A stretch of DNA of 64,000 nt from Malacoraja senta (lineage: Eukaryota), in the NCBI GenBank assembly GCA_038087875.1, contig CM075987.1, forward strand, positions 18,912,001-18,976,000, read 5' to 3'. The notes below the pieces were generated by a model. It saw only the letters and a list, made by a program, of their open reading frames with translations, was not told where the DNA came from and did not search any database. This document shows positions 29,001 to 58,965 of the stretch, in pieces (the stretch's first letter is position 1; each line of letters begins with the position of its first letter). The position numbers and the translations under genes are program-made.

Positions 29001-32000
29001 AGTTGCCCTCGGAATTCTCAATGAGGTTGGCGGCCACCCACATGGCCAAGGTGTCGCTTTTACAGTAGGACTACCGGGCAACCCAAAATCTTCAATGATG
29101 TAATAAAGGAAGAATAGTTTATGGATGACAAGTGTCTATCCGCTACAAAATCAACCAAAATCCACTCAGTTTTTCTTTCCACATAATTTGCAAATCCTCC
29201 ATAATCGTAGTTCTGCAATCCAATTCCGCTCAAGTCATTTGTATTTGGGTTCTGGATTGAAGACACTAAAATGTCATTGCAAAATCAATATATTGCTCCC
29301 AAATATTGTCTCCAATTGACAAATATATTTCTGTCTTTGTCTGAAATCAACTATTTATTAGGACTTTGTGACTGGATTTTTTTTGTTCAAGGCACACAAT
29401 TTTTCATTATCAACTCCAACAGCGATGCTGCCTGACCCACTGAGTTACTCCAACACTTTGCTTTTTTAAAAAATATTGAAAGTCTAGGACAGGTAATTTA
29501 ATAAACTAAATTTTAAATGTTAGCGAACTTGTGGTATCATCTATCTATATAATTAAAAGTCTCATCTTGACCACTTCCTGTTTGCACTGCATATTGATTT
29601 TAGAAAAAACGCTATCACTTAAGGCTGTGATTTTTGGCCATCTTACTCAGTCCCCCTCCGTTGTGCAGGACAAGAGGATTTTTCCCATCGATGAAAAATA
29701 AAAGAGTTATTAGTGCTGAAAAAATGTTGAGATTCTCTCTCCTGTCAATTACTGCCACAAAGGCCACGCCTCTTCTGATGGGAGGGACTATAAAACCAGG
29801 AAGTATGGGCATGGCTCAGTCTCTGCAAGATGGGGGAGGGAGAGGTCACCTTGGTGGCCTTGCACCTTGATGAGGTAATGGTAGGAAACTGCATTTGAAT
29901 TTGGTGGCCTTGCACCCTGCTTGAAATGGTAAGAAACTTCAATTGAATTTGGTGGCCTGCACTCTGCTTGAAATGGAATTTCAAGGAATAGCCGTGAGTA
30001 AACTGCCAACCAACCAGCCGTGAGTGAGTAAGCTGCCAGCACACCAGCCTTGAGTTACTGAGCTGCCAACCTAAGAATCCATTCGGCCCACAATGTCCAT
30101 ACTAGCCCTCTGGAAACAAGTCCCTTCATACCACAACACCCATACTAGCCCTCCAGAAAGCCCCCCCACTGGCCACCAATATTGGAATTGGTGGAGAGGT
30201 GGAATATTGCGTTGGGGGACTAGCCCTCCCGTGTGAACATGGGTCCCACTTAGTCTAGTACATAACTAAAACTCTGATCTTGTTATCTTCCGGTTTGTGC
30301 GGTATTTCTATTTGCGCAAAAACGGTTCGCGATAGCGCCACGATTTTTTGCCAGTTCACTCACCGTTCTCCTATGCTGCGATTGCACCAAGTTTTGTTCC
30401 GATCGGTTGAATATTGTAAAAGTTAGCAGGGTTAAAAAAATCTTTAAAACCGCGCGCGCGCAGATCGATCTCTTCTCCTGTCACTCACCGGGGCGGTCCG
30501 CCCCTTCCTGCGCCATTGCGTCTTTATTAGAGCTGAGGATGGCCGGCGGAGGCCAGCCCCAAGCAGCGCAGCGTCAAGCAGCTCAGCGTCAGAGACCCAG
30601 CCCAGCGTCGGAGACCCAGCCCAGAGTCGGAGACCCAGCCGAGCCCGGAGTCAGATCTGTTGCCAAATGGAAAGCGGAGACTCTGATCCCGACGGAGAAG
30701 AATGACCAACGATCAGCGGCCACTATGAGTTCCCATCGCATCGCCAATTCCAGCAATTACTCCTCTGGTCCCCCTCGCTGGCTCCTCCCCCCTCCCCCGT
30801 GATACCTCCTCTCGCCCATGTCTTTTCTCCGAGCTCACTCCCCCCTTCCACCCCCCGCCCACACCCCTCTCCCCCCTCCCCGCCCACCCAGAAACAATAT
30901 TCTATGGTATGATGAAGCCAAGATTGAACTCTTTGGCCTGAATGCCAAGAGTCACGTCTGGAGGAAACCAGGCACCGCTCATCACCTGGCCAATACCATA
31001 CCTACGGTGAAGCATGGTGGTGATAGCATCATGCTGTGGGGATGTTTTTCAGCGGCAGGAACTGGGAAACTAGTCAGGATTGAGGGAAAGATGAATGGAG
31101 CAAAAAACAGAGAGATCCTTGATGAAAACCTGTTCCAGAGCATTCAGGAACTCAGACTGGGGCGGAGGTTCACCTTCTAACAGGACAATGACCCTAAGTA
31201 CACAGCCAAGACAATGCCGGAGTGGCTTTGTGACAAGTCTGTGAATGTCCTTGAGTGGCCCAGCCAGAGCCCAGACTTGAACCCGATCGAAGATCTCTGG
31301 AGGGACCTGAAAATAGCTGTGCATCGACGCTCCCCATCCAACCTGACAGAACTTGAGAGGATCTGCAGAGAAGAATGGGAGAAATTACCCAAATACAAGT
31401 GTGCCAAGCTTGTAGCACCATACCCAAGAAGACTTGAGGCTGTAATCGCTGCCAAAGATGCCTCAAAAAGTACTGAATACTTATATAAATGTGATATTTC
31501 AGTTATTTCTGTATAATTACTTTGCAAACATTTCTAAACACCTGTTTTCGCTTTTATATTATGGGGTATTGTGTGTAGATTGATTAAAACATTTTTTTAA
31601 TCCATTTTAGAATAAGGCTGTAACGTAACAAAATGTGGAAAAGTGAAGGGGTCTAAATACTTTCTGAAAGCATTAAACACCATTTCAGAGGGTGGTTAGA
31701 TTGAATTGTTTAGGTGATTGGTAGATGAATACAAAAATAACTCTCAGCCACCTTCCAATAAATAGAAAAAAAACAGCTATAGTTCTACAGAATAGAGTAT
31801 TTAAATGCAAGGCACCACTTATGTTGCAGTCACAAACTCAAATACCTGCCCACAGTTGTAACTTAATATCAGCTATCCATATACAAATTGCACAATTTCA
31901 AATTTTTGATTGAACTAATATTGTGCTTCTAATGTTATACATTTAAATTGAAGGAAACATGAAATGCCTTTTCTACAATTTTCTGCTAGATATAGAAATT

Positions 32001-35000
32001 CTTCAATAATTGTCTCATTACTACCATACCGTAATAATCTTCTCCTGTTGCGAACTGACCCACGAGTGCTTTGAAGTACTGCAAGGGAACAACAAAAGAA
32101 AAATGAGTGATAATAACAACAGATTTCTTACTGAAAACACACAAGAGTCTGTGGATTAAAAATATATATATTTCACATTTACCCAATAAGTACATTCAAT
32201 TGTGAAAATTAGTAAGAAACTTGGCAAGGCACATTTGTTCCAAAAATTCACCTTCAGGGTTAATCTCACCCAAAATTGTGATTAGCAACAACATTTTCCT
32301 AGTAGCCATGTCCTTTCACTGGCAATAGTTAATTTCCAACCACATTAAGCAATTCTGCAGAATTGTGGTGGCGCTGTCAAGAAAATCAAAATAGAAATGT
32401 ATTTTAATCCCCATGAGAAAATGCAATGTGATATAGTCCTCAAATTATATGTTCCAAAGGTACATGCAAATTCTTGAAAGTTGAAGAAAATTGTTAGTAT
32501 AGCTATTCCAGATAGAATTTCTTTGAAATGCCCATATAATCAGCCCATATAGTGTCAGTCAGAGAGCAAATTAAAAAAAAAACAGCACCTATTGCTCACA
32601 ACTCAGGAGGTTTTCATTTCTGAACTCAAACCTACATATTTAAAAGGAATATTTATAATATGTAAGATACAGTGCCCTCCATAATGTTTGGGACAAGGAC
32701 CCGTCATTTATTTATTTGCCTCTGTACTCAACATTTTGAGATTTGTAATAGAAAAAAAAAATCACATGTGGTTAAGGTGCACATTGTCAGATTTTAATGA
32801 AGGCCATTTTTATACATTTTGGTTTCACCATGTAGAAATTACAGCAGTGTTTATACATAGTCCCCCCCATTCCGGAATGTATTGTAAATGAAAGTAGTCA
32901 GTGTGATGTATGTAATATAATTAGCATATGTTATGTCTTGTGCGAGAGGACGCATGCGCTGGGGGAGACTCAAGGTGGCGACCTAGAATAAAGAAGCTTG
33001 TCAGTTTACTCCTGTATCTGAGAGTTCTTTTGGGCCAGTTCCAAGCACCCAAATACACTACAATTGGCGACGAGGATGGGATGGAGTTCGTGAGCTCACC
33101 CGCAGGACTGTTTTGCAACAAGCAGGATTGTTTGGCCGTTTAAACAGTAGATACAGAGTTGTGTCGCAGTTGTTTGCGAGCTGGACATGAGAGGCCTGCA
33201 GATCCCTCTATGCCGGGGACTGTAATTTAAAACATCAGCTGTACAAGTCGGCGAGTTTTGTAAGGCTATCTTTATGTTGTGTCTACGTGGCAAGACGTTG
33301 TCCTTCGGATTGTTACACATTTAAGGCTGAGGTTTTTTTTGTCGAATTCCTCAAGCTGAATAATCTTTGTACAGCTAAGTTTTAGGTGAATTGTTACACC
33401 AGAACACGCAACAAGGATAACGAGGCAACGAGGATAAAAGAACAGAAAAGAACAAAGAAGGACTTTCAAGAAAAAAAAAACCAAGTTAAAAAGAAGAGGT
33501 TGTGTTTGGAAACAAAGTGGAACGGCACCAAGCCAAAGGAAAGAAAGGTCAGAACAGGAAGCAAGGAAAACAAGTGGGGCAGTAAGTAAGTGTCACCGAA
33601 GAACGCAGCCGAAAGCTGGAAGCCTAACCAGCAGGACAGCGACAGTGTCAACTTACCTGGAATGTTTTCCAGGGCCGTGCAGCCACGGGAAAGGGGCAGA
33701 AGAGGCCCAGCAGCCGCCACCGACTTCGGGTGAGTTCCAGGGCCGTGTACCGTGTAGGCCACGGACAGGTCCAGTGACCGCCACCGACTTTGGACGTTTT
33801 CCAGGGCTGTGCAGCCCACAGCCAGGCCCAGGAGCCGCCACCGACGTCGAGTGAGGGCCTAGTACCGGGTAGGCCACGGACAGGTCCAGTGAAGCCACAG
33901 ACGAAACGGAGTCAGCCCGGCCGGGAGAAGAGTCAGCCCGGTCGAGGGAGAAAACTGGCCGCGTGAGAAGCGGACAGGTAGAGTAAAAAAAAAAAACGGC
34001 TGCGAGAGAAGCGGACCGGTCGTGAGAGAAAGCCCGGTCGCAAGAGACGGCCAAGAGGAGAGAAAGCCCGGTCGGGAGTAGTCAGCCCGACCGTGAGCAG
34101 AAAAGCGGAGAGGCCCGCGAGAGAAGCGGAGAGCCGTGAAAGCCCGGTCGCAAGGGACGGCCGAGAGCGGAGAAAGCCCGGACGTGAGAGGAAGTCCGGC
34201 CCCGATAGAAGAGTGGGTCAGCGCGAGAGAAGCGGGACACAGCAGTCAAGCACTTCAGCCGGTCGGGAGCAGAGTCAGCCCGGTCGGGGGAGAAAGTGGA
34301 GAAAGCCCGGTCGCGGGAGACGGCCGAAAGCAGAGAAAGCCCGGTCGCGGGAGACAGCCGAGAGTGGAGAAAGCCTACCACGAGAGAGGCACAGTCCCGT
34401 CGCTTGGAGCAGCGGGGACCAGCAGCAGTAACTAGCAGCGACTCACCATCCGCAGGGTGTCCAAGGGAGACAGCGACGAGCCGAGCAGCGGGTCCAGTAT
34501 CAGCCAGGAGGGCTGTGGAGCCAGCGGGCAGGCAAGTCAGCGGAGCAGCAGGAGTCGACTTGGCAACAAGCCAGCGGCAGCAAAAGTGACGGTGAAGCCC
34601 AGGGGAGCCAGCAAAAGCAGCACAAGTGGAGGTCCGGTGAGGCCATCAGCAAAGGTACCAGTGGGAACAGCTCGAGAGGTCGAGGATGCACCAGAGTCCA
34701 CAGGCCACAAGCTGGAGCTGTGAAATCCTTCATAATAAAAGCCCTCTGTGAATGAAATGCATGGGCACAGTAAAAGCAGGACTGTTTAAATGTAATGCAT
34801 TGGTCACTGTTATTAATAGTAAATCTGTGTGCATAGAAGGAATATGGTTTAAAATGTTCTAAATGGCTATTAACATGAAATGTTGGTTAATAGTATAAAT
34901 CTATTATTATAAGAATTAGTAATAGTCAGTGGGCTGGATCACTTCTTAGTGTGTAAAATGATTAAGTCTAGTGCAGAAAACACAGTGAGAGAACAGAATA

Positions 35001-38000
35001 TAGTGCACCTGAATAGCAACATGTAGCATGGCTTTCCAAATTGTAGGAAACGTGCCCCAGTTAGATTCTGGGTGTAATTTTGAGAAATGGACCAAAGTCT
35101 TGGAGGCTTGTTTCATTTCCAATGATATCGCTGCAGAGGAGAAGAGAGCATGGTTCATATTAGGCTTAGGAAGAGAGGGTTATCAGACCTCACGTATGTT
35201 ACTGCAGCCAGCAAAGCCCACAGATAAAATGTACAAGGAGTGTAAGGAGGCATTAATGGCTCATTTCTCGCCAAAACCTCCAAGGGCATCCAGAGGCAAG
35301 GAGCCTGAACTAAAGAGGGCAGAGAGTCCCTCAAAGGACAAAAGTCAAGTGCAAAAGGACAATGGTCAAGTGCAAAAGGACCAAGGTCAAGTGCAAAAGG
35401 ACCAAGGTCAAGTGCAAAAGGACCAATGTCAAGTGCAAAAGGACCAAGGTCAAGTGCAAAAGGACAAAGGTCAAGTGCAAAGCGACAAAGGTCTAGTGCA
35501 AAGGGACAAAGGGCAAATGCAAAGTGACAGAAGTCAAAGGCAAAGGGAAATTGCCATCCAAAGGGCAACCCTAGCTATTCAAGCTGCATTCAGGGGTATG
35601 AAGGTACGGAGAGAGGTCCGGAACAAGCAGAAGGCAGCAACGGTAATACAAGCAGCATTTAGAAGGCACAGAGTATACCGTCAATACAAGGCAATGAAAT
35701 TAGCAGCTATAATAGTACAAACCCATTATAGGGCACACCTTCAAATGGAAAGTGATCGCAAGACTTACATGAAGGTACGCAGAAGCGTTGTACTGCTTCA
35801 GGCTGCCTACCGAGGAATGGTTGTTCGAAAGCAATTGCGGTGCATGCACAAATCTGCCAAGGTCATACAGACTTATTATCAGATGCATAAACAGCGTCAG
35901 TATTTCAAGAAACTACGCTGGTCTGCCATTGCGGTACAGCAACGATACAGAGCTTGCCAGATAAGAGATGTCCAAGTGAGACATTATAATAGTTTGAGAA
36001 AAGCAGTGGTTTGTATTCAGGCTTTCTACCGTGGGATCAAAGCCAGAGAATTGGTTGAGAAAATCAAGGCAGCACGCCATATTACGTCATTCATAAGGAT
36101 GTGTATTACAAGAAAGCACTTCTTGATGCAAAAGGCGGCTGTAGTCACTCTGCAAGCTGCATACCGTGGTTACTGATTAAGGGTATGGTACAGAGCTATG
36201 CGACAAGCAGTCATTTCGATCCAGAGATGGTACAAAGCATGCAAAATAGGGCATTCCCAGTTTGTGCAATATCAGTCAATGAGGTATGCAACTATTACCA
36301 TTCAGGCTGCCTACAAGAGTATGGTGGTTAGGCAGTGGGTTAAGCAAAAGAGGGCTACTGTAAAAGTGCATTCAGTACTCCATATGAGTTGGTATAGGAA
36401 AGACCTAAGGAGACAAATAGATGCACAACAGAAAAGGCTTAAATGATACAAAAGGCTTAAACGATATAGGAAAGACTTCCTCAAACTGATTTATACAGCA
36501 GTTGTAGTGCAGTCTCACTACCTTGCTTATGTAGTAAGAACAATATACAGAGCGCAAATCAAAGCCACTGTTGTATTGCAAAGACAATATAGATCCTACT
36601 TCTTGACGAATAACCAGAAAAGTGATTTAAGAAGACAAATAGATGAAAAACTGAAAAGGCTTAAACGATACCAAGAATGGTTAAATAAATGTGTGACGAT
36701 GAGCAAAAAGCTGTTAATAGAAAAGTCTAAAGAAGAGAGGCTTGTCGGTCGAGACAAAAGTATGCAGGACCGATTGCGATTAGGACACTTCACTATAGTC
36801 CAGCATGGAGCTTCCTTCACTGAGCAATGGACAAATGGTTATGCATTACAGAATGTCATTATTCAACAAGAGCAGATAAATATGCAGCGCCAGGAAATTG
36901 AGCGACAGAGGAAGCTGCTGAAAAACAAAAACCTGCAGTCATGTGCCAGATCCCACCTACAAATAAGGAACAGAAACAGAGGAAATGTTAACTGTAGCAG
37001 AATATCAAGAACACGAAGAAATCTGCAAATTAGATTAGGATATTTAAAAAGGGAAGAGGCAGAGATACAGGTAGACCTAGTGATTAGAAAGAGTGTGCAA
37101 TTTACACAGAAGGGAACGGAAAAGGATAACACATAAAGCAAGGTGTAATGTATTTGATTTAAGGAAGATGAGTGGAATGAACCATTATAAGTGCTAAGTT
37201 TAGATACGATTATTACAGTTATGAGGATGTAATGTAAGATGACTGTAATAATATAATTTTGCAACAGTGTTAAGCAATTATATTTAATGTAATAGAAATG
37301 GTGTTATTCGCCTCCAAGTTAAAGGGGGAGCAGTGTAATGTATATAATGTAAATGGTGTTACCTGCCTCCAAGTTAAACGGGGAGCAGTGTGATGTATGT
37401 AATATAATTAGCATATGTTATGTCTTGTGCGAGGGAACACATGCGCTGGGGGAGACTCAAGGTGGCGTCCTAGAATAAAGAAGCTTGTCAGTTTACTCCT
37501 GTATCTAAGAGTTCTTTTGGGTCAGTTCCAAGCACCCAAATACACTACAGTCAGGCTTAGTATTTTGTTGCATATCATTTGCATGCCATGCAATGACTGC
37601 TTGAAGTCTGCGATTCGTGGACATCACCAGTTGCTGGGTGCTTCTCTGGTGATGTTCTGCCAGGCCTGTATTACAGCCATCTTTAGCTTATGCTTGTTTT
37701 GAGGGCTAGTCCCCTTCAGTTTTCTATTCAGCATATAAATGGCATGCTCAATTGGATTCAGATCAGGTGATTGACTTGGTCACTCAAGAATTCACCATTT
37801 TTTAGCTTTGACAAGCTACTTTGTTGCTTTAGCAGTATGTTTAGGATCATTGTCTTGCTGTAGAATGAACTGCCGGCCAATGAGTTTTGAGACATTTGTT
37901 TGAACTTGAGCAAATAGGATGTGTCTATACACTTCAGAATTCATTATGCTACTACCATCAGCAGTTGTATAATCAATGAAGATGTGAGCCAGTACCTTCA

Positions 38001-41000
38001 GCAGCCATACATGCCCAGGCCATAACACCCCCACCACCGTGTTTCACAGATGAAGCGGTATGCTTTGGATCTTGGGCAGTTCCTTCTCTCCTCCATACTT
38101 TGCTCTTGCCATCACTCTGATATAAGTTAATCTTCGTCTCATCTGTCCACAAGACCTTTTTCCAGAACTGTGATTGCTCTTTTAAGTACTTCTTGGCAAA
38201 CTGTAACCTGGCTATCCTATTTATCCAGCTAACAAGTGGTTTGCATCTTGTAGTGTAGCCTCTGTATTTTTGTTCATGAAGTCTTCTGCGGACAGTGGTC
38301 ATTGACAAATCCACACCTGACTCCTGACGAGTGTTTCTGACCTGCCGGACAGGTGTTTGGGGATTTTTTTTAATTACAGAGAGCATTCTTCTGTCATCAG
38401 CTGTGGAGGTCTTCCTTGGCCTGCCAGTCCCTTTGCGATTAGTCAGCTCACCAGTGCTCTCTTTCTTCTTACTGATGTACCAAACAGTTGATTTTAGTCA
38501 GCGTAAGGTTTGGCTGATGTTTCTAACAGTTTTATTTTTGTTTCTCAGCCTCATAATGGCTTCTTTGACTTTCATTGGCACAACTTTGGTCCTCATGTTG
38601 ATAAACAGCCCCATAGCAGAAGCATCCATGTCGCGGCGCTGGAAACTGGAAGTGTCCTGAGCTAGGCCACCATCATCTACTGTATCTATTGTACCAACTC
38701 CTGCAAAGCTACAACCACCAGCCTACAAAGTTTTAACAAGTGATGGCTCCCACCGATTGTCGCCAGAAGCCTGCGTCCTTTTCAGGATGGATGATGACGG
38801 TGATGTCCATCAATGCCGAGGGCATTTCATCTGCAAAACAACAACTAATTGGAAAGCTCTGCAATGAGAATGCCTGTGATGTCTTATGTCTACAAGAGAC
38901 CCACAGATGCCAGCAACAGCATCGACCTAAGATCCCTGGAATGAAACTAGTTATTGAAAGGCCACATGAGAAATATGGCAGCACTATCTTCAGTAAAAGA
39001 GACCTAATCATCAACCAGACTTCAATGACAGAAAGGGACAACATAGAAATCCTTGCTGTGAACCTGGGGAAACTAATTGTGACCTCTGTTTACAAACCGC
39101 CAGGCTCTTCATTTGCCTTTGAAGAACACCAAACCATCAGTTACCAACACATGAATGTTACCATTGGGGATTTCAACAGCCACAGCACCTCATGGGGCTA
39201 TAAAGAAACCAACGAGGATGGTAATCTTGTAGAGAGTTGGGGAGAAGCACATCATCTTGACCTAATTCATGATGTTAAACTTCCTCCTTCCTTCAATAGC
39301 TGCCGATGGAAGAAAGGCTATAATCTCGACCTGACCTTTACAAGTGATCGAATAACATGTCAAGGCAAAAAACTAGTCTTCGAGTCAATACCACACTCAC
39401 AACACAGACCAATCATCATTGACATTACTGTTGTGGTACCTCAGAGAGTTCCTCTAGGACGGCGTTTCAACTTTCAAAAAGCTGATTGGGAGCAGTTTGC
39501 CAGCAATCTGGACGGAGCCCTATCTAATCTCGAGCCAGTCCCAGCAAACTATGATCAGTTCATCAAAACAGTGCAAGACATTTCTAGAAAGTATATTCCA
39601 CGCGGATGTAGTGAGTAGTATATACCTGGAATCTCAGCTGACAGTGCCTCATTTTACGAGAAGTACTCAAAACTGTACGAGGAAGATCCCTTCTCAGAGG
39701 AAACTATGAACACAGGGGCGATGCTCATGTTAACAATATCAGGGTAACAAAGAAAATCCTGGCAAGAACTTACTGAGAGTGTTGATATGACACACAACAG
39801 TAAGAGAGCTTAGTCAACCACCAAGAAGCTAAACAACGACCCCCAGAAGGCAACTGCACTCTAACATTACAGCAGATCAGGTTGCTCACTAGCTGCTTCT
39901 GAATGGCAAACCACCACACAAGAAGCACCACAAAATGAGTCTATGGCCTCAGGGTGATAGAGAGTCAACCTGGTACTTCAACAGCAAGGAACTCCAGAGA
40001 GCAATCAATTCCCTCAAGAACGGCAAGGCAGCTGGCCTTGATGACATTCGCACAGAACAGATCAAACATTTTGGGCAGATTACACAAGAGTTGGTCCTCT
40101 TGCTGCTCAACAATTGTGCAACCCTCTGCCAGCGACCTAAAATATGGCAGAAAGCTCTTGTGATCGCTATCCTTAAGCCAGGGAAAGACCCTAAAGAAGC
40201 AAAAAGCTACTGACCGATCTCCCAACTATGCCATCTCTTCAAGCTCTTTGAGTGCCTCATCTTGAACAGGTTGGGCCCAATCACAGAACAACACCTTATA
40301 CCAGAGATCGTGTACCAGCCAAGTGCTCAATCTAACTCAGCACATTGAGGACGGCTTTGAAAGGAATGAACCAACTGGCGTTGTCTTTGTTGATCTGACA
40401 GCTGACGACGACACTGTGAACCACAGGCTGCACCTCAATAGACTCCATGACATGACAGAGGACTTCCACTTGACCAATCTGATTCAACAGTTACTGGAAA
40501 ACAGTCGCTTCTATGTTGAGCTGAATGATAAACGCAGCAGATGGAGGAAACAAAAGAATGGCCTACCTCAGGGCAGTGTCCTTGCTCCGGTTCTGTTCAA
40601 TGTATACACTAATGATCAGCTAGTGTTCCCAGGGACAAGAAGCTTTGTTTACGCTGACGACCTTGGAATAGCAGCCCAGAGCACTCACATAGATGAGGTA
40701 GAAGCTACCCTCTCATCATCCTTAGACAACTTGACAAACTACTACTAGGACAACCAACTGAAGGCAAACCCTGCTAAGACCCAGGTTAGCCTGTTCCACC
40801 TTCGTAATCACGAAGCTGGGAGGAAGCTGTCCGTAACATGGATTGGTGTCCCTTTGAGACACTGTGAACTACCCTGTCTACCTTGGGGTCACTCTGGACC
40901 GAACCCTCTCCTTCAAGCAACACATCAAATGGGTGAAGGGCAAAGTGAGGACGAGGAACAGCCTCCTCCGCGAGCTGGCAAACTCGTCGTGGGGTAACAA

Positions 41001-44000
41001 TGCATCCACACTGTGGTCAACTGCTCTTGCGCTGTGCTACTCTGCTGCAGAGTATGCTTGTCCTGTTTGGGAGAGATCATCTCATGCAAAGAAAGTTGAT
41101 GCCACCCTTAATGACAGCTGCAGATGCATCACTGGCTGCCTAAAACCAACGGATGTGGATAGCTTGCATGTCTTGGCCGGTATTGTTCCACCAGGAATCC
41201 GCAGATCAGTTGCAGATAGAACTGAACATTGTAGGTAAGTTGGGGACACCCGCCATTCCTGTCACTCCCATCACCCACCCCCAAAACAGCTGAAGTCGAA
41301 GAAGAGCTTCCTTCACACAGTCCAGCCACTGTCAGTCTCCTCAAGCAACCAGACTAGCCTTGTGGGAAAAGAAACGCAGTGAAAACCACCACCACGTAAA
41401 GATGCCAATCCCAACCAAGGAACAGTTACCACCTGGTCACAGGTGTGACTGGAAGACCTGGAAGTCCCTCATAGGCTTCATACAGGGATGGGCTGAGGCA
41501 AGACCAATATGAGCAAATGGGGCTATGCGGATGTGGCAGACACAGAATGTGAATGTGGAACATCTATACAATCAATGCCACACCTACTAAGATGCCCACT
41601 TCTTGGTGAACAATGCTGCCTGGAAGATCTAGCGGTGGCAAACGAGAAGGCTGTCCACTGCAAGAGCCTGGCCGAACATTTGAAACATAAGATGATGGAC
41701 ACGAAAGAAGATATTGATAAACAGCAAAAAGTTTCCAAAGTTGATGGAAAGACTGGGGGAAAGACTAGGTGCTGAGAGGTCTCTTATACCTGCATTAAGG
41801 AGGCAATTAAACACACCTGAGCAATTACAAATGCCTGTGAAGCCATGTGTCCCAACATTATGGTGCCCTGAAATGGGGGGGGGGGGGGGCTATGTATAAA
41901 CACAGCTGTAATTTCTACATGGTGAAAACCAAAATGTATAAAAATGGCCTTTAATAAAATCTGACAATGTGCACTTTAACCACATGTGATTTTTTTTCCA
42001 TTACAAATCTCAAATTGTGAAGTACAGAGGCAAATAAAGAAATGATGGGTCTTTGTCCCAAACATTATGGAGGGCACTGTATGTGCCTTTTTTACTTTGG
42101 TTAAATAAATAATCAAGCATGTACAGATGGGTTAAGTTCTAATTCTCCCTGAGGGATGAGGTTGTGCAATAAACGTTTTTGACCATGTTTTCATCTCAAT
42201 TTCAACACTTGGGACCTACTGCCATATTAATTCAGATAATTTGAAAAGTACCCTGCTGAAAGAAAAATCAAGGCAAAGAACTTGTTCTACAACTTAGCAG
42301 TTTGATCATGAGAGGAAGGATGTAAATTGGGTAAGAGCAAAACCTTCTCCTTATTTATTTACTAAGCACAAGCCAAGCTGGACAATGGGACAAAAAAAAG
42401 TTATTGTTATCCAAGTAATGTAAATGGAAATCAAATTAGAAAGTGCATATATTTATTGAGCATTGAATTTTTAAATTTCAAAATAGCAATAAATTAATTT
42501 CTGTACAATTCATCATTACAAGGTTTATTACAATAGAAAAGGTTTCTGGACCCTTTTTCTGCCTGGTGGCACGACAGTCACAAAGTATTCTGGACAAGTA
42601 TCTCCCCCAATTTTGTTCACATGTAAATATATATAACAGATTATTTTACTGATATCAATCAGGAAACATTGACTTTTACCCTTTGATTCAGGAGTGCTGA
42701 GAAGATTTGCATAATTTTAGTTCAGGGGAACTTCTTTCTTCATGGTATACTCTGCACCTAACTTCCCTCTGATAAGTTCATGCTGCAGGGAATTTATCCA
42801 GTGAGACACTAACTAAGCTGCATGCTGGTCAACCGTGTATCTCTGGTATAGCTCTGGCAAGAAGCAAGTACATATTAAACCAAAAGATACAGCATGACTG
42901 GGAAAAGGTGGGCCAGTCTCTCATTGCTTTAACAGAGACAATAAATATACAGGGCTCACCAGCCCAAATAGGATGATAATAAATTAGATTGGAAAAATGT
43001 ATTTATTTAGTCAAACTTCAAAGTCATAGGTGGCTTACAGGACAATAATCTACAATAATAAATAAACTAAACTAAAACGAACCTTTAGCAGGTCCAGTTA
43101 CTATGCACGTTTCATAATGCAAAGAAAAGGTACTGTTAAGTCGGTTCTCAATTATAAAGCTTGTATTTCTCTCCACCCACAAAATTAGCTAAACATTCTT
43201 ACATTTCAGCAGAAAAGACTGTACATCAAGGAACTGAAAAAACTAATAAATAAAAATCTCACCTTAATTTCAAATATGCATGTTTGCAAAGAATAATTCA
43301 CTACACAAAGACACACTACACACATTCACTATACAAAGTATTACTTCGTCAACAGGTATGCCCTTACCCGAAAGGTTGGATAGAAGTGAATACCATAGTC
43401 TGCACATGCAGCAAAATTCTTCTCCTCGGCACAGTCCATCGCACCGACCCTGATTGCCAATTCCCAATCTGCACAGAAAAGTTTACTTCATTATTTTCCG
43501 ATACAAATTTAGCACTTGACAGTGGCCAGATAAAGCCGTTGAGAAAGGTGAATGAGATACTTAAATTTATCAGATGGGGAATGGAATAAAATTGTAAACA
43601 TTATTAGTCAGGTCAAAATTGAACCTCCAGTCACCACCAAACAAGATAGCTCTGGAGAGGATGCAGAGATAATGCGCATGTTGCCAGGGCTGAAGAATTA
43701 TAATGATGAAGAGAAACAAAATTTGTTAGGGATTGTGCTCTTTTGGATAGAGGATATTGAGGAGATATTTGAAATGAAGTGTGCAAAACTATTGTCCCTC
43801 TGTTGCAGTTACTCTTTCACAAGATAATTAGCAAATTAGTAGGCAGAGTCTGTTGCTTTTATTTCCTTTTTTTAAAGTTTGTAAGAAACAAAGTCTCCAA
43901 TATTACAAAAGTAGTAAGGTGATTGCATTCTACAATTTCCTTTGATTTGAGCTGTCCATTTAGAACATGAAAATGAAGGGAACCATAAAGTATTCACATG

Positions 44001-47000
44001 TTAATTGGCTAATTATTAATTGGGTAACAAAACAAAGGAAATTGCAAAGATGTCTGGATTGCCACACACCTTTCCAGACTGATTAAATGAAAAAATATTA
44101 TTATTTTTTAATTATTCAAAGAAATTGAAAAGGGAAGCCAAGTGGCTGCAGAAAATCTTTTTACGAAGGTCTGCAGCAAGCAAGAATTTCATTGTCCTAT
44201 CTGGGACACATGACAATAAAACTCTCTTGATTCTTTTTCATTAACCAAGTTTAATAAGAGTGCTGTTGAAAACTACATTGAGAATCGGGCATATGTTTGG
44301 AGAGTATGTGTGAATTATATTAGAAATTACTGAGAATTGGTAATAGTTGTAATTACTTAAATTACAGGAATTAAGATTAACCAAGACTGGCAGGATTTCA
44401 GAATTTATTTCTGCTAATGCTTAAATTGTCAGCGATAAACTGTTGAGAAACGAAGGATAGAATGAGATTTTCTTTACTAAATGCAAATAAAATGTTAATC
44501 TGCAATCTCAATAGATAAAACCGATAACTTTGAAATCCAATTAAAAGGTCACATTAATTTCTGTAAAGGTAAACGGTGTTTTAAAAAATGCAATCACGGG
44601 TGAAGGTTAGCAAGACCGTTAGGCTATTGACACTTAAATATTTTATTTAATAAATATGTCAAGGATTGGATTGGAAGGGAAAACTTTTTTTAATTATTGT
44701 GCTTGGTGATAATAGTGAGGCAAGACTCCAGAGGACCAAAGTAATAATGATCATATGGTCCATTCGCAGGTCAACTGTAAAATAATTGATTATAGTACAT
44801 TCAATAATGCCAGGTTTGATCACAAAGAGAAATTACTGGAAGGTATTACTGGAAAAGTTTATTTTCCTTCTCAACAGAATCACTCAGGAAAAAAGCCACA
44901 TAAAAATAATTTCAGGCAGCTGAGAGGAAAAATCAGAGCTCCTGAGATTAAAGGCCAAACTTCACATAGCACAATTTTAAACAACTGCATAATTGGAGGG
45001 TTGTAAATAATAAGTGGATTTTGATTGCACTCGAGTTATGGGCAGAAATCTGTAGCATTCAACAGATTAACACTGCTGACAATTTTCTCTTTCAAATTGA
45101 ACTATTTCATTTGCAGATAATGCAAAAACGTGGCTGTCTTTGAGATTACGTTGTACCACTTGAAAAACGATCAAAATTCTGTTTTATCCTAAAGAACGCC
45201 CGAGATAATAAAAGGTACTATCAGTTCTTTCACCAAAGCAATAAAATTGCTTGCCAATTTTGATGTGACTTGAGTCATCTACAGAGAACAAGTATAATGT
45301 CATATACTTGAGGTAGATTAGGAAACTGCATAGTTTGTATTCTGTTAAAAAATAAAGACATGTCATGCTGGCTGGGACCAGCAAATTCACATTTTAGGGA
45401 CTACAGGGAAAGCAAAATGAATTTTAAGATGCCTTCCTGGAGCAGTTTAAATAAATAAAAATAATATTTATCTCCTATATAGATTTGGTGCCAATTAATT
45501 TGCCTTCATATACCCAAGCAATATGTGCATCAATGAGCAGCACCTTTTAAAAACAGTTGCCATCTTTGTAAGTATTTTCCCAGTAAACAAATCTTTCAGG
45601 AATCAGACATCTAGATGCTAATTATAGTTTGCACAATCATCTCATCACTCAATACATTCTATACTGTATATACGGAAGCATAAACAAGCAGAAGGACACT
45701 TTATTCATTGTGTTCAATTGAAGTGACAACTTCCATCCCTCGAACCCTGTCACCATGCATTAGAAGTAACAACACAAAATCATAAGAGAAACAAAGATTC
45801 TTCCTCACGCCAGCTAGGCGGAGCAAACACTATGTGGCAGTAGAATAGTGACACAAGGAACTACAGATGCTGGAATCTTGAGGAAAACCCAAAGTGCTGG
45901 AGTAACTCAGCAAGTCAGCGGTAGACACAAAATGCTGGTCAGCGGGTGAGGCAGCATCTCTGGAGAGAAGGAATGAGTGACGTTTCGGATCGAGACCCTT
46001 CTTCAGCAAGTCAGCCACTGAGTTTACTCCAGCAGATAGTGGCAGCACCTTTGGAAGTAGTCGGAAAGTAAAGGAAGGAAAAAATATATCCACAAACATA
46101 GGATATATGCCAGTGAAGCAAATCATTTCTTGTAAGATAGTTTCACAAGAATCATAAAAAGGCTTTCATAAGGTGATTGCTTAATATCTTACCCCACAGC
46201 TCATTGCTGAAATATGAAGTGCCAGTATCTAATGATGTAATTGTCTGGAATCCAATTAACCTGGCACTGATGAGGTGTCACATCACCAAATTACAAAAGT
46301 GTGCACTCACTCCCCCACTACCAAAACTGGAGAAATAGTATCTATGTCATGTGTAGACACAAGCATTAACTGGCAATAGTTAAATGGGGTTTGGAATAAA
46401 AACTAAGATGAAAAATTAAAGCATTCCTTTAATAATGCTTACATCTAAGTATGGAGAATACAACTGATGCATTAAATTGAGCGGAAAATTTAAAACAAGA
46501 CAAAATATTCACGGAGTTTTGCTTTACTCTTTTGATAGCAACTTGAAAATGTTCACTGCGATAGGAACAACGTAATTACAAAGCTGCTAAGTGGTATAGT
46601 ATTAGCTTTGCACGTTTCTTTCTACTGCAATACCAGTCAAGAGCAGCATGAAAAAAATTCTGCTGGCTGAAAGGTAACTGTTGACTTACATCATCAACTT
46701 GTTCTTACAGTCTTGGCTGTAACCTTATGTAAATAAGCCATTTAACATCTATTCACCTGATATCCATGGCAGGCAACTTACTGGATGGAGGTGATTCGGA
46801 GGGATAAGATATCTATGTACAGTGGCTTGCAAAAGTTTTCATACCCCTTGAACTTTTCCACATTTTGTCACGTTACAACCACAAACGTAAATGTATTTTA
46901 TTGGGATTTTATGTGATAGACCAACACAAAGTGGTGCATAATTGTGAAGTGGAAGGAAAATGATACATGGTTTTCAATTTTTTTTTTACAAATATTAAAC

Positions 47001-50000
47001 TGAAAAGTGTTGCGTGCAAAAGTATTCAGCCCCCCTGAGTCAATACTTTGTAGAACCACCTTTCGCTGCAATTACAGCTGCAAGTCTTTTGGGGTATGTC
47101 TCTACCAGCTTTGCACATCTAGAGACTGAAATTTTTGCCCATTCTTCTTTGCAAAATAGCTCAAGTTCAGTCAGATTGGATGGAGAGCGTCTGTGAACAG
47201 CAATTTTCAAGTTTTGCCAGAGATTCTCTATTGGTCAATTAGGTCTGGACTTTGACTGGGCCATTCTAACACATGAATATGCTTTGATCTAAACCATTCC
47301 ATTGTAGCTCTGGCTGTATGTTTAGGGTCGTTGTCCTGCTGGAAGGTGAAACTCCGCCCCAGTCTCAAGTCTTTTGCAGACACTAACAGGTTTTCTTCCA
47401 AGATTGCCCTGTATTTGGCTCCATCCATCTTCCCATCAACTCTGACCAGCTTCCCTGTCCCTGCTGAACAAAAACATCCCCACAGCATGATGCTGCCACC
47501 ACCATGTTTCACAGTGGGGATGGTGTGTTCAGGGTGATGTGCAGTGTTAGGTTTCCGCCACACATAGCGTTTTGCATTTAGGCCAAAAACGTCAATTTTG
47601 GTCAGATCTGACCAGAGCACCTTCCTCCACGTGTTTGCTGTGTCCCCCACATGGCTTGTGGCAAACTGCAAACGGGACTTCTTATGGCTTTTTTTCAACA
47701 ATGGCTTTCTTCTTGCCACTCTTCCATAAAGTCCCGATTTGTGGAGTGCACGACTAATAGTTGTCCTGTGGACAGATTCTCCCACCTGAGCTGTGGATCT
47801 CTACAGCTCCTCCAGTTACCATGGGCCTCTTGGCTGCTTCTCTGATCAATGCTCTCCTTGCCCGGCCTGTCAGTTTAGGTGGACGGCCATGTCTTAGTAG
47901 GTTTGCAGTTGTGCCATACTCTTTCGATTTTCGGATGATGGATTGAACAGTGCTCCGTGAGATGTTCAAAGCTTGGGATATTTTTTTATAACCTAACCCT
48001 GCTTTAAACTTCTCCACAACTTTATCCCTGACCTGTCTGGTGTGTTCCTTGGGCTTCATGATGCTGTTTGTTCACTAATGTTCTCTAACAAACCTCTGAG
48101 GCCTTCACAGAACAGCTGTATTTATACTGAGATTAGATTACACACAAGTGGACTCTATTTACTAATTAGGTGACTTCTGAAGGCAATTGGTTGCACTGGA
48201 TTTTATTTAGGGGTATCAGAGTAAAGGGGGCTGAATACTTTTGCACGCGACACTTTTCAGTTTAATATTTGTAAAGAAATTTGAAAGCCATGTATCATTT
48301 TCCTTCCACTTCACAATTATGCGCCACTTTATGTTGGTCTATCACATAAAATCCCAATAAAATACATTTACGTTTGTGGTTGTAACGTGACAAAATGTGG
48401 AAAAGTTCAAGCGGTATGAATACTTTTGCAAGCCACTGTATTTGGAAAGTCAGGTGGATTAGGGATAGCAGGGCTCTCGCTTAACTTTTTTTCACTGTTG
48501 CCAGCCGGGCAACCTAGGCAGCTTTTTAGGTTGCCAAATGACAGTTTAGGTGGTCATTTAAGATGGCTTGCCGACATGATATATCCCACAATGACATGCA
48601 GCAAAATTATAAGACAGTATCTCAACTCATTTTACACATTGCAATTAATGCAATTTATATTAGTTCTTTCCACTTCCAAACAAAAATGTGGTTGGATTAT
48701 TCAGCATATGATCAACCTGTGTCAATAAATCCTGGACCATGGTAACATATATGCGTACGTATAGTTGTGAATGTTTTTTTTTTTTTTAATTTTTAAATTT
48801 TTATTTATTAGAAGTACATTACATTACAACCACATACATTAGTACTCGTCATTTATATCTTCTTACAATTAATGTACTCCATTTATTTTTTACACTAGAA
48901 AAGGAAAAGATTGAAAGAAGAAAGTGAAGGAAAAAGTGAAAGTGTAGGAAATGTGACAACAAAAAAGGACGAAGACCCTATAAGAGCAAAATTAAAAACA
49001 AAAGAAAAAGAGTTAAGAAATAGACCCTAGGAAAGAAAGAGAGAGAGAAAGAGGAAAAAGAGAGAAACAAATATTTTTATGAGCATTACGTAAATGGGAC
49101 ATACCAACTATCGTCCCCCCTTACCTGACCTCAATTTTTTTTTTTTTTAAGTACTTTTGCACCCTATGTTTGTAATAATTCTATAAATGCAGACCACGTC
49201 AGGTGGAAGTGACCTGGTTTACCTGCTAGGAGGAGTCTTATCTCTTCTAGGTGTAATGTTTCAAACATATTTGAAATCCACATATTTATAGTTGGTATTG
49301 GAGCCTTCTTCCAAAATTTTAGAATTAGCTTTTTTCCAGTTATTAACCCATAGTCCATTAGTTTCTTTTGAAACACATTTAGTTCTGGACCATCTTCCGT
49401 TATACCGAAGATAATCCATTCTGCTTTGGGTATCAGTCTTGTTTTAAATAACTTTGTAAAGATTTCAAAAATTTCATTCCAAAATTTTTGAATTTTTGTA
49501 CAGAAAACGAATGAGTGCGCTATAGTAGCTTCTTGGGATTGACATTTATCACAAATAGATGATACATTTGGGGACATTTTATGAATTTTAGTTTTCGAAT
49601 AATATAATCTATGTAAAATTTTAAATTGTATTAAAGTGTGTCTTACATTAATCGAGCATTTATGCACATTTAATAAGTATTCATTCCAACTTTCCTTTGA
49701 AATTTTAATAGCTAACTCTTGTTCCCAGTCTCTTCTGATACCCTCCGTAGATGGTATTTGTACATTTAAGATAATATTATACAAATATGATATTAAGTTT
49801 GCTGATTCCGCTTTTATCTGCATTGCCTCGTCCAATACATCTACTGGGTTATTATAATGATCTTTTGTATATTTTTTCAAATAGTCGCATATTTGAAAAT
49901 ATTTAAAATATTGATTATTTCCGAGTTTATATTTTATTTGTAATTGTTGAAATGAAAGTAATTTTCCAGTTCCATACAAGTCACCAAGCGTTTTAATTCC

Positions 50001-53000
50001 TAATCTATCCCATTGTGTATAAGCTTTATCTATAATAGAAGGATTAAACAAAGGGTTATTGACTATAGGTAATAAAAGTGATAAATTTCTTAATTTTAAA
50101 TTTTGTTTTATTTGTTTCCAAATTCGGATTGTACTATGAATAATTGGGTTCTTATTATAATTTATGTTATTCAATTTCATTGGAGAGAGGAGGATCGCTC
50201 CAATGTTTCTAGAGGAGCAATCCTCTTTCTCCATTACAATCCAGTTCACTTGCTGGGCGGAGTTATCCATCAGTTGAATCATATTTTTAATATTTACTGA
50301 CCAATAATAATACATAAAATTAGGTAGTGCTAAACCCCCTAATACTTTAGGTTTATTCAGATGAGTTTTTTGTATTCTATGTGATTTATAGTATTCTATG
50401 TGATTTATAGTCCCATATAAAATTAGTGATATCTGAGTCGAGTTTTTTAAAAAACTTCTTTGGTAAGTATGTTGAAATAGGTATAAAATTTGTGGTAAAA
50501 AGATCATTTTTATTGCATTTATTCGGCCTATTAAAGACATCGGGAGCGTTTTCCAGAATTTAATTAGTGTGTTTAATTTATTAAGTAAGGGGTCAAAATT
50601 TGCCCTAAACATACCTTGATATGATCTGGTAATTTCGATTCCCAAATATTTAAATTTTTCTGTAGCTATTTTAAAAGGGAATTTTAAAAGATGTGTTGAA
50701 TCTTTCGGTTTTATTGACATAATTTCACTTTTATTCCAATTTATTCTATATCCAGAAAAAGATCCAAAGTCTTCAATTAAATTTAATATATTTGGTATAG
50801 TGATTTGAGGTTTTGTAATGTACAGTAATATATCATCCGCGTATAAAGATATTTTATTATATGAATCTTTAGTATTATATCCATGGATATCAGGGTGTAT
50901 TCTAATTTTTTCTGCTAGCGGTTCAATAATGAGAGCAAACGGCTGTGGTGATAATGAGCATCCTTGTCTATTTCCCCTTGATAGTTGGAATTTCGAGGAT
51001 AATATGTTATTAGTTAGTATTCTAGCTGTAGGTTTGTTATATAGTAACTTGATCCATAGAATAAAATTCTCCCCCAGTTGAAATTTTTGTAATACTTTGT
51101 CCATATAATTCCATTCTACTTGATTGTGAATGTTGCTCATTAAATAACTGCAGTACTGATACTCCATATTAAGAGCATTGATTTGCCGTTAAAATGAATT
51201 CTGTAATAACGTATCAACGGCAGCAGTGACAATCGAACACTGCGGTTTTAATGTTTCACGTGTTCACAATTTAATTAATCCATCTTTATAGATTAAAACA
51301 AATAATAACATTGGGAATTAAAACACATTTGATTGCATTCCGTTATCAAACATAGTCAATGTTCGCTCTGAAGACATTTCCAGCACAATAGGGTCAGGGA
51401 GGGGGGGGGGTGTGAATCAGTGCGGGGTGGATAGATGGCGGGGGTGGGGGATTAGAAGGCAGTCGGTGCAGAATGGATGGATTGAGGCAGGTGAATTAGT
51501 ACGTGTTGGTTGGAGTAGGTAAAATTGTGAGGGGAGAGCACCGGGGATGTCAGTGGTGTTGAATGGGGGGGGTTCAGTACGGGATGGATGGGGGTAGACA
51601 AAAGTGCTGGAGAAACTCAGCGGGTGAGGCAGCATCTATGGAGCGAAGGAAATAGGCAACGTTTCATGTCGAGACCCTTCTTCAGTCTGTTCCCCCCATT
51701 CTTCTTGAATGGGAGGATCAGTACAGGATGGATGGGCAGGGGGGGGATATCAGCGCAGGATGAATGGGGGGTCACTACAGGATGAATGAGGGGAAGGGGG
51801 GAACGTGCAGGGTAAATGGAGGGTGGGTCAGTACGGGATGAATGCGTGGATTAGTACAGGATGGATGGAGGAGAAGTGCAGGATGGATGGGAAAGGGGTA
51901 AGTACAGGGTGAATTGGGGAACCAGTGTAGGATGGATGGGGGGGGTGGGGTGGCAGGAGAATCAATGCGAGGTGGATAGGGTGATCAGCGCAGGATGAAT
52001 AGATGGGGGGGGTAGATGTGGAGGGGTGAACAGGGGATGTCAGTGAGGACTGAATAGACGTGGGAATGGGGATCAGTGCGGGATGGAGTGGAGGGGTCCC
52101 AGGATAAGGGGGTGGAGGGGGCGTACAAGAGAGAGAGAGGGGGAGAGAGGGAGAGAGGAAGGAAGGTCAGCGCTCCTCGGACAACATCGCCCCACTGCCT
52201 TGGCCGTTGGGAACTCCTCGCCACCGCCTCCCTCCTCCGCCAGCCAACAGCAAGGTGCGGGGCCGGGCGGTGCAGCTCAGAGATCCTATAGCTATAAGAT
52301 CTTTGATGCAGCTGCTTCAGATGAGTCGGAGCGAATGACGGGCCCCGAACAGCAGCAGCAGCGGCCACGAGAGCGGCTCCATCTACGACTCCTCCCGCCC
52401 CCCGCCCGCCCTGATAAGGGCCTCTGCTTGTAAATCCACTAACCGCGCTTTCAAAACAACCCCTCCCTCCTCCCGGCCTCTACTAGGTGTGGGGTGAGGA
52501 AGGGTCGGAGCGAATGACGGGCTTCGCACAGCGGCAGCAGCGGCCGTGCCAGTGGCTCCATCTCCTCCTCCTCCCACCCGCCCTGATCAGGGCCTCTGCT
52601 TGTAAACCCGCTAACGCCGATAACCGCTTTCAAAACAAACCCGCATGCACGCCGAGGCCTCCCCCTCCCTCCCTCCTCCCGGCCTCGGTGTGCGGGAGAG
52701 TTTGTTTTGAAAACGGTTATCGCCGTTAGCGGGTTTACAAGCAGAGACCCTGATCAGGGCTGGCAGGGGGAGGCGGAGATGGAGCCGCTGCTGCCGCTGT
52801 TCGGGGCCCGTCATTCGCTCCGACCCTTCCTCACCCCGCACCTAGTATCTTTGCCCCGCACAGCCGCCGCCGACACAAAACATTGCGTTCCTTTTGTCCA
52901 GAGATGCTGCCTGACCCGCGGAGTTACTCCAGTTTTTTGTGTCTATCTTCGGTACAAACCAGTATCTGGTTGCCAAGCCGGGCAAAATGACTCAGTGTTT

Positions 53001-58763: not shown

Positions 58764-58799
58764 CTTCCCAACGGCCGCCAGCCGCTCGAGCCGCGTCAC

Positions 58800-58965
58800 C
58801 TCTCACCCACGCCGCGGCCTGACGTAACGGGGGAGGGGCGGGGGCGGGGCGGACGTCGCCGGGGGCAACCGCGGCTCCTGTGACGTCACCACTCACCCGC
58901 GCCGCGTCCTGACGTCACGGGGGCGCCGTCGCCGGGGCAACCGCGGCTCCTGTGACGTCACGGGA
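58800..58965 (-). promoter_or_regulatory. QSOX2 CpG-island promoter/5' region with GC boxes, CRE and X-box-like sites
   Basis: Immediately upstream of the ATG in CpG-rich DNA; TGACGTCA at 58881, 58910, 58953, TGACGTAA at 58820; GGGGCGGGG at ~58835-58852; GTCGCC(N2-3)GGCAAC at 58855 and 58928. Confidence 0.75.

Follow-up and report, generated by a model that had tools for sequence, protein, structure and literature searches.

An intron-less TLK2 fragment as probable passenger cargo of an apparently amplified, non-autonomous LTR retrotransposon in a likely skate genome

Host messages can be captured by LTR retrotransposons, and a mechanism of template switching, with capture from several genes and later amplification, has been described in metazoans (Tan et al. 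2016, PMC5131818). In zebrafish, five of seven retrocopies were made by LTR elements, and cartilaginous fish are not among the species named in the sections of that study on which we draw. The mechanism is thus known already, and the cases described in those sections are mostly single or present in few copies. The nearest multi-gene case is maize Bs1, a copia-like plant element with pieces of three parental genes and one to five copies (PMC5131818). Regarding the host protein considered here, the coiled coil CC1 of human TLK2, but not CC2 or CC3, is required for binding of TLK1/LC8, and the N-terminus is required for nuclear entry (PMC6023931, section 6).

We analyzed a stretch of 64,000 nucleotides (the window), in which an earlier note had reported an intron-less, kinase-less and mRNA-derived TLK2 fragment that was linked to Gag and was proposed to work as a dimerisation module. 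The TLK identity of the fragment (most probably TLK2), its lack of introns and kinase, its origin from a message and its link to a Gag-like start were borne out, whereas a working module was not. The earlier note had omitted the main point, namely that an apparently amplified LTR family carries the TLK2 piece as cargo, fused to a piece of ASPM.

The TLK2 piece forms the 3' cargo of a pol-less LTR element of 4,648 bases on the plus strand. The element is flanked by five identical bases, GTCAG, at 32897..32901 and 37550..37554, which form the target-site duplication. The 5' LTR (32902..33062) and the 3' LTR (37389..37549) are each 161 bases long and differ at six positions (K2P 0.039); the former runs from TG to CA and contains AATAAA at 32987. 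A primer-binding site, which presumably pairs with the 3' end of tRNA-Ser(GCU), lies two bases past the 5' LTR (33065..33082), and its 13-base core occurs once in the window against 0.01 expected. The polypurine tract (37376..37388, 11 purines of 13) adjoins the 3' LTR and is preceded by an AT-rich 3' region (37132..37375), in which no poly(A) was seen. The leader of 1,945 bases (33083..35027) consists of GC-rich degenerate repeats and yielded no Pfam family in any of the three plus-strand frames. Rfam gave four weak matches in the window, none of them inside the element. Among the leader repeats at 33700-34600, contig joints skip units in several cases, and no coding match was found there. 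The polypurine tract and the start of the LTR are duplicated in tandem as 55-base units, which together span 37287-37396 (first copy 37287-37341, 85% alike); one contig joint of sequencing run X5 near this duplication steps back 55 bases, and the unit number may vary.

Between the two LTRs, pieces of host genes take the place of the internal element frames. A single sense frame of 703 codons, from 35028 to its end stop at 37134, joins a Gag-like start, a repeat linker, ASPM and TLK2. The Gag-like start comprises the 89 N-terminal residues that open the frame (35028..35294). A feature search, which gives leads and not alignments, returned DUF7041 (0.94-0.95) and Retrotrans_gag clusters (0.88-0.90) for it; no Pfam match was found, the structure model had a pLDDT of 53, the fold search gave nothing meaningful (best Z 5.2), and a metagenome scan confirmed none of 159 pattern matches. 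The linker (35295..35549) continues in frame as a 21-base tandem repeat (seven residues, QVQKDxG-like). The ASPM piece (35550..36623), about 330 residues of the IQ array, corresponds to stingray ASPM residues of about 2599-2931 with 59-60% identity, is in frame and contains a stop at 36174. Within it lies an in-frame insert of 72 bases (36402..36473) with a stop at 36444; both stops of the fusion frame in the window copy are upstream of the TLK2 piece. This insert contains the TLK2 start once more (47 bases that are 87% alike to 36628-36674), and an 11-base word stands on both of its flanks. No pol-sized frame was found within the element, where the longest other stop-free stretch is 187 codons. 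Stingray ASPM itself (P0122, P0272, P0273) has two nearly alike IQ blocks 219 residues apart (at about 2384 and 2603), a likeness that suggests concerted evolution within the large exon. We do not claim the ASPM piece to be a mosaic of two internal ASPM repeats; its first 140 residues fit both about equally and the rest fits the second only.

The ASPM and TLK2 pieces are each cut at both ends and lie in sense orientation and in frame. LINEs also remove introns, and they are common in the window, in which reverse transcriptase or endonuclease matches were found at 2783-4552, 38737-40748 and 49164-51188. It is conceivable that a LINE made a processed TLK2 pseudogene, which was put into a pre-existing LTR element and then carried along. 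We regard this as quite improbable, since the TLK2 piece is an internal, partial message with neither poly(A) nor a target duplication of its own seen by eye on its flanks, and since it replaces gag-pol instead of interrupting it. In addition, the 72-base insert between 11-base repeats resembles a switch out and back. As to the LINE matches themselves, the one at 2783-4552 is a minus-strand frame of 589 codons, which we take to be CR1-like, and that at 49164-51188 is a minus-strand frame of 674 codons with zf-RVT.

The first 100 codons of the TLK2 piece (36624-36923) gave 1168 matches among 1270 candidates, the best of which was shark TLK2 (E 4e-41, 81% identity). Judged by name, TLK1 is absent from the 120 best matches listed, and the linker of the fragment agrees with elasmobranch TLK2 at 14-16 of 20 residues. 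In a PDB search, the fragment matched the human TLK2 structure 5O0Y at 1e-45. The comparison of 36624-37131 with the TLK2 of a skate (Leucoraja) showed 129 identical and 36 changed residues out of 165 in five pieces: 36624-36923 in frame 0 (80/100), 36926-36985 in frame 2 (16/20), 36988-37023 in frame 1 (9/12), 37029-37079 in frame 0 (12/17) and 37084-37131 in frame 1 (12/16), separated by frame breaks near 36925, 36986, 37025 and 37081. The TLK similarity is thus real, all four peptides quoted in the earlier note are present, and the frames do return, in the order 0, 2, 1, 0, 1, for the quoted peptide of 16 residues. The fragment as a whole (36624..37131, plus strand) covers human residues 244-423 in the numbering of the 750-residue isoform, that is, part of CC1, CC2 and most of CC3. 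The match ends at shark TLK2 residue 387, 24 residues short of the kinase glycine loop at 411, indicating that the fragment is indeed kinase-less. The predicted donor is an elasmobranch TLK2, because the eight best of 141 ranked TLK2 proteins are those of sharks, skates and rays (127-129/165). A chimaera reached 124/165 and none of the others exceeded 121; a single shark model, from which an exon is missing, reached 111.

The LTR element sits in a Tc1 element within a QSOX gene, probably in an intron, and is antisense to the gene. The first and last coding exons of this QSOX-family sulfhydryl oxidase, between which the element lies, are at 58272-58802 and 1479-2108 on the minus strand, with QSOX1 as the best PDB match of each (8e-18 and 5e-12); its C-terminus is, we assume, QSOX2-like. 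The Tc1 element (32667-42082) has inverted ends of about 200 bases that are 92.6% alike and a transposase at 37759-38497, and it contains the LTR element and a LINE (38737-41238) as nested insertions. Two more Tc1 remnants were observed at 46818-48440 and 30918-31476.

Copies of the element were found in other organisms. Out of 23 sequencing runs listed, 17 (seven organisms, nine studies) hold 27-41% of the words, with shares of 0.27-0.33 in organisms B, E, F and G; runs X19-X23 (share 0.15 or less) were left out. Contigs of four runs (organisms A, C, D and D), three of DNA type and one (X18) guessed to be RNA, were compared in detail at 80% likeness. All 30 bins of the element were covered in all four runs, and contigs joining about 32900 to 37557, which represent the empty Tc1 site, were likewise present in all four. 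In the three DNA-type runs, the summed depth exceeded the median depth of listed single contigs by a factor of about 245-464 over nine cargo bins and of 118-501 over three TLK2 bins; as summed depth is not a copy number, the depth ratio is rough and the 31 records listed come out of nearly 60,000 pieces, 'hundreds' of copies seems appropriate as an order of magnitude only. In three organisms, the contigs are numerous and distinct and their summed depth is high, as expected for secondary retroposition; the number itself is rough. Of the 31 listed records, 5 bridge the joint between ASPM and TLK2, and these come from organisms C and D. In organism A, one contig runs through the 72-base insert without a gap, and in organism C, one contig apparently lacks the insert. 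Run X18 covers all bins, and its element-to-Tc1 depth ratio reaches about one-fifth of the value obtained with DNA from this organism. No specific transcription was seen in this run, whose signal may come from DNA or intronic background, and its raised ASPM bins could reflect the host message.

A Leucoraja erinacea protein, XP_055489032.1 (P0134), which bears the RefSeq name 'ASPM homolog isoform X1', is a sister copy. Its Gag-like start is 91% identical to that of the window copy, its linker is longer and differs in the number of repeat units, its ASPM part is identical at 88 of 93 residues, and it ends at residue 290. In a search with the Gag-like start, this protein was the sole relative among 24 candidates, and the host of the window is therefore probably a skate. 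No autonomous helper was found among these 24 candidates or in the metagenome scan. Horizontal transfer was also considered; host origin is the simplest account, since the cargo is elasmobranch and a sister copy is present in a skate.

Splice-site variants of human TLK2 give junctions at c.831/832, c.968/969, c.1121/1122 and c.1286/1287 (PMC5992133, Table 1), and these were placed on the fragment via six anchor residues from the same source. Junctions 1 and 2 map to 36725/36726 and 36862/36863, with no extra base at either. Junction 3, at about 36986-36988, is joined, but about ten host codons are gone there and it is not cleanly readable; junction 4 falls past the end of the fragment. The third junction does not appear to be limited to mammals, because 43 of the 141 TLK2 models have an insertion at residues 373-377 and a shark TLK2 gene model (P0011) skips from this point. 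With the human positions as reference, the fragment neither lies within a single exon nor retains introns, and its derivation from mRNA is supported by the lack of introns at the mapped junctions. Precise intron loss relative to the host locus would follow from these human positions. The ASPM piece says nothing on splicing, because it lies within the IQ array, which is one exon in human (PMC6899738). This silence leaves some room for capture at the DNA level, for a host TLK2 gene without these introns or for an assembly chimera. We consider all of these very improbable: DNA contigs from organisms C and D read across the two clean junction positions and bridge the joint, the shark model and the 43 models mark the third junction, and Leucoraja has a sister copy.

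Over the first 100 TLK2 residues, the six sharks, skates and rays compared agree at 99-100, and each of the 141 proteins reaches at least 93. The window copy differs at 20 of these nearly invariant residues. Eighteen of the 20 changes are one base away, and their mean BLOSUM score of -0.10 falls within the neutral expectation of -0.22 to -0.09, although 20 changes give little power against weak constraint. Since only about 4 of the 20 are expected to have occurred after the window insertion, we infer that most predate it and arose within the family. Among the 40 substitution rows listed out of 704, seven are in the TLK2 piece, of which four are silent and three residue-changing as judged by hand. 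Part of the divergence of the window copy is its own, because other copies mostly keep the host residue at these three rows. The 12 length rows listed out of 90 include one at a TLK2 break (25-72% of depth in the three DNA-type runs); the absence of the other three breaks from these rows hints that they are common to the copies.

The window copy has no open frame through TLK2, being interrupted by the stops at 36174 and 36444 and by the TLK2 frame breaks. As the first Met past the two stops is at 36699, no product started at an ATG would include the captured part of CC1. The limits of CC1 are, as we assume, at about 225-276. The fragment begins inside this coiled coil, and the upstream run of the host protein and the N-terminal region needed for nuclear localisation in the human protein are missing. 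A complex prediction for the first 100 residues with skate TLK2 165-300 scored 0.01, which gives no interaction answer and is neutral either way. With the CC1 start missing, two stops upstream and 20 of 100 invariant residues changed neutrally, a working dimerisation module is not supported, and the idea of a dominant-negative protein is weak on the same evidence. The window copy is broken and presumably dead, and its TLK2 part looks like a passenger and not a working tool.

The frame as such seems more open than the drift of its residues would suggest. In 458 codons of ASPM and TLK2, two stops were found against about 8.4 expected (P about 0.01, an assumption-laden value that takes ASPM to drift as TLK2 does), and in TLK2 alone none against 2.2-2.4 (P about 0.1). 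The number of stops expected since insertion is 2.1, and two are observed. A stretch of 1,896 bases is free of frameshifts, and three frame changes cancel one another across 35 codons without a stop (about 0.01, post hoc). The 703-codon frame is thus poorer in stops than expected under drift, which may mean that the family stayed translatable. If ASPM drifted as assumed, an open frame with drifting residues would fit selection on translation of the RNA better than selection on TLK2 function.

These observations bear on the possibility that a Gag-ASPM-TLK2 fusion of about 700 residues, made by source copies, aided the spread of the element. In this scheme, the Gag start would assemble together with the capsids of a helper, the basic IQ array would take over from nucleocapsid and bind calmodulin or RNA, and the coils of TLK2 would form oligomers or attach to TLK/LC8 in dividing germ cells. 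In its favour, one frame extends over 703 codons, both captures are in frame, the length variants (the 21-base unit, a one-codon difference and the 72-base insert) preserve it, the stops are fewer than expected under drift and their present number is that expected since insertion, the frameshifts are compensated, one of the four TLK2 breaks varies among copies, and the apparent copy number is high. We nevertheless find such a contribution rather unlikely: the TLK2 residues drift neutrally, the CC1 start and the nuclear localisation region are missing, the 35 codons between CC2 and CC3 read as though scrambled, no unbroken chimera was present among the 120 listed of 1158 matches (347-1106 residues), and the Leucoraja model stops at residue 290. 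Equally doubtful is the wider proposal that a vertebrate non-autonomous LTR family swapped most of Gag for an ASPM IQ array and TLK2 coiled coils, stayed translatable over the long term, and owed its spread to hundreds of skate copies to a protein that co-assembles with helper capsids and engages calmodulin and TLK/LC8 in the germ line.

We think it likely, instead, that a non-autonomous LTR retrotransposon of the Gypsy type captured two messages, was amplified by a helper and carries the TLK2 piece as passenger cargo. In the germ line of an elasmobranch, probably a skate, reverse transcriptase in a particle would have left the element RNA for the message of ASPM and the spliced one of TLK2, both packaged along with it, and would then have returned, and the captured pieces would have replaced the remainder of gag and pol in its entirety. 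The resulting chimera would have retained its cis signals and been copied in trans, many times, by an autonomous helper. Its TLK2 residues would then have drifted, with at most an open frame retained if translated RNA was more stable or better packaged. The window copy would have inserted into the Tc1 element in the QSOX intron, antisense, and died since. ASPM and TLK2 are cell-division genes, and because their messages are expected to be abundant in oocytes and the early embryo, the choice of these two is sufficiently explained. This reading is supported by the element anatomy, the two sense in-frame captures, the two clean junctions, the elasmobranch donor, the coverage and depth in the runs compared, the sister copy and the neutral spectrum. 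The stop deficit, the 1,896 bases without a frameshift and the compensated frame changes are the counterweight to a pure passenger.

A two-gene chimera in apparently hundreds of copies and several fish species offers a natural series for asking whether captured domains are passengers or aids to spread. In practical terms, annotation takes such copies for ASPM homologues, as with one RefSeq model from the little skate, and they will divert TLK2 and ASPM reads in skate RNA-seq and genotyping; they could also be a source of small RNAs against two essential cell-division genes. Among the titles and abstracts of the open literature that we searched, no description of this skate element was found, and the family may already be catalogued with its cargo unremarked.

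The element can finally be set against the systems described, as far as the sections cited cover them. It shares the sequence of the CC1-CC3 region with TLK2 (PMC6023931) but lacks the N-terminus, the CC1 start and the kinase, and has 36 of 165 residues changed and four frame breaks. With the Mag C clade of Ty3/Gypsy elements (PMC3601003) it shares the short LTR (161 bases against a training length of 174) with AATAAA, LTR ends that fit TGTNATRT at 8 of 8 positions (5') and AYANAACA at 7 of 8 (3'), the 5-base target duplication and the priming sites; unlike Mag C, it has no reverse transcriptase, protease or integrase, so that its assignment to the clade is tentative, and its Gag-like part is cut after about 89 residues. 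As in the LTR-mediated retrocopies of metazoans (PMC5131818), host messages that are partial and lack introns stand in for the internal frames of an LTR element, more than one parental gene can contribute, the orientation is sense and further rounds of retroposition follow. Those cases are mostly young and low in number, whereas the present family apparently has hundreds of members spread over at least three organisms, and its cargo has diverged by about 20% in protein. Like Bs1 (PMC5131818), the element is pol-less, unites parts of several host genes within a single hybrid frame and was amplified after capture, but it carries two mitotic/S-phase genes and Gypsy-type signals and has far more copies, and its protein product is putative. 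The element behaves as an LTR-mediated retrocopy in its place between two LTRs, its lack of introns at the human junctions, its partial message and its secondary retroposition, and it differs in its scale, its age and its long Gag-led frame.
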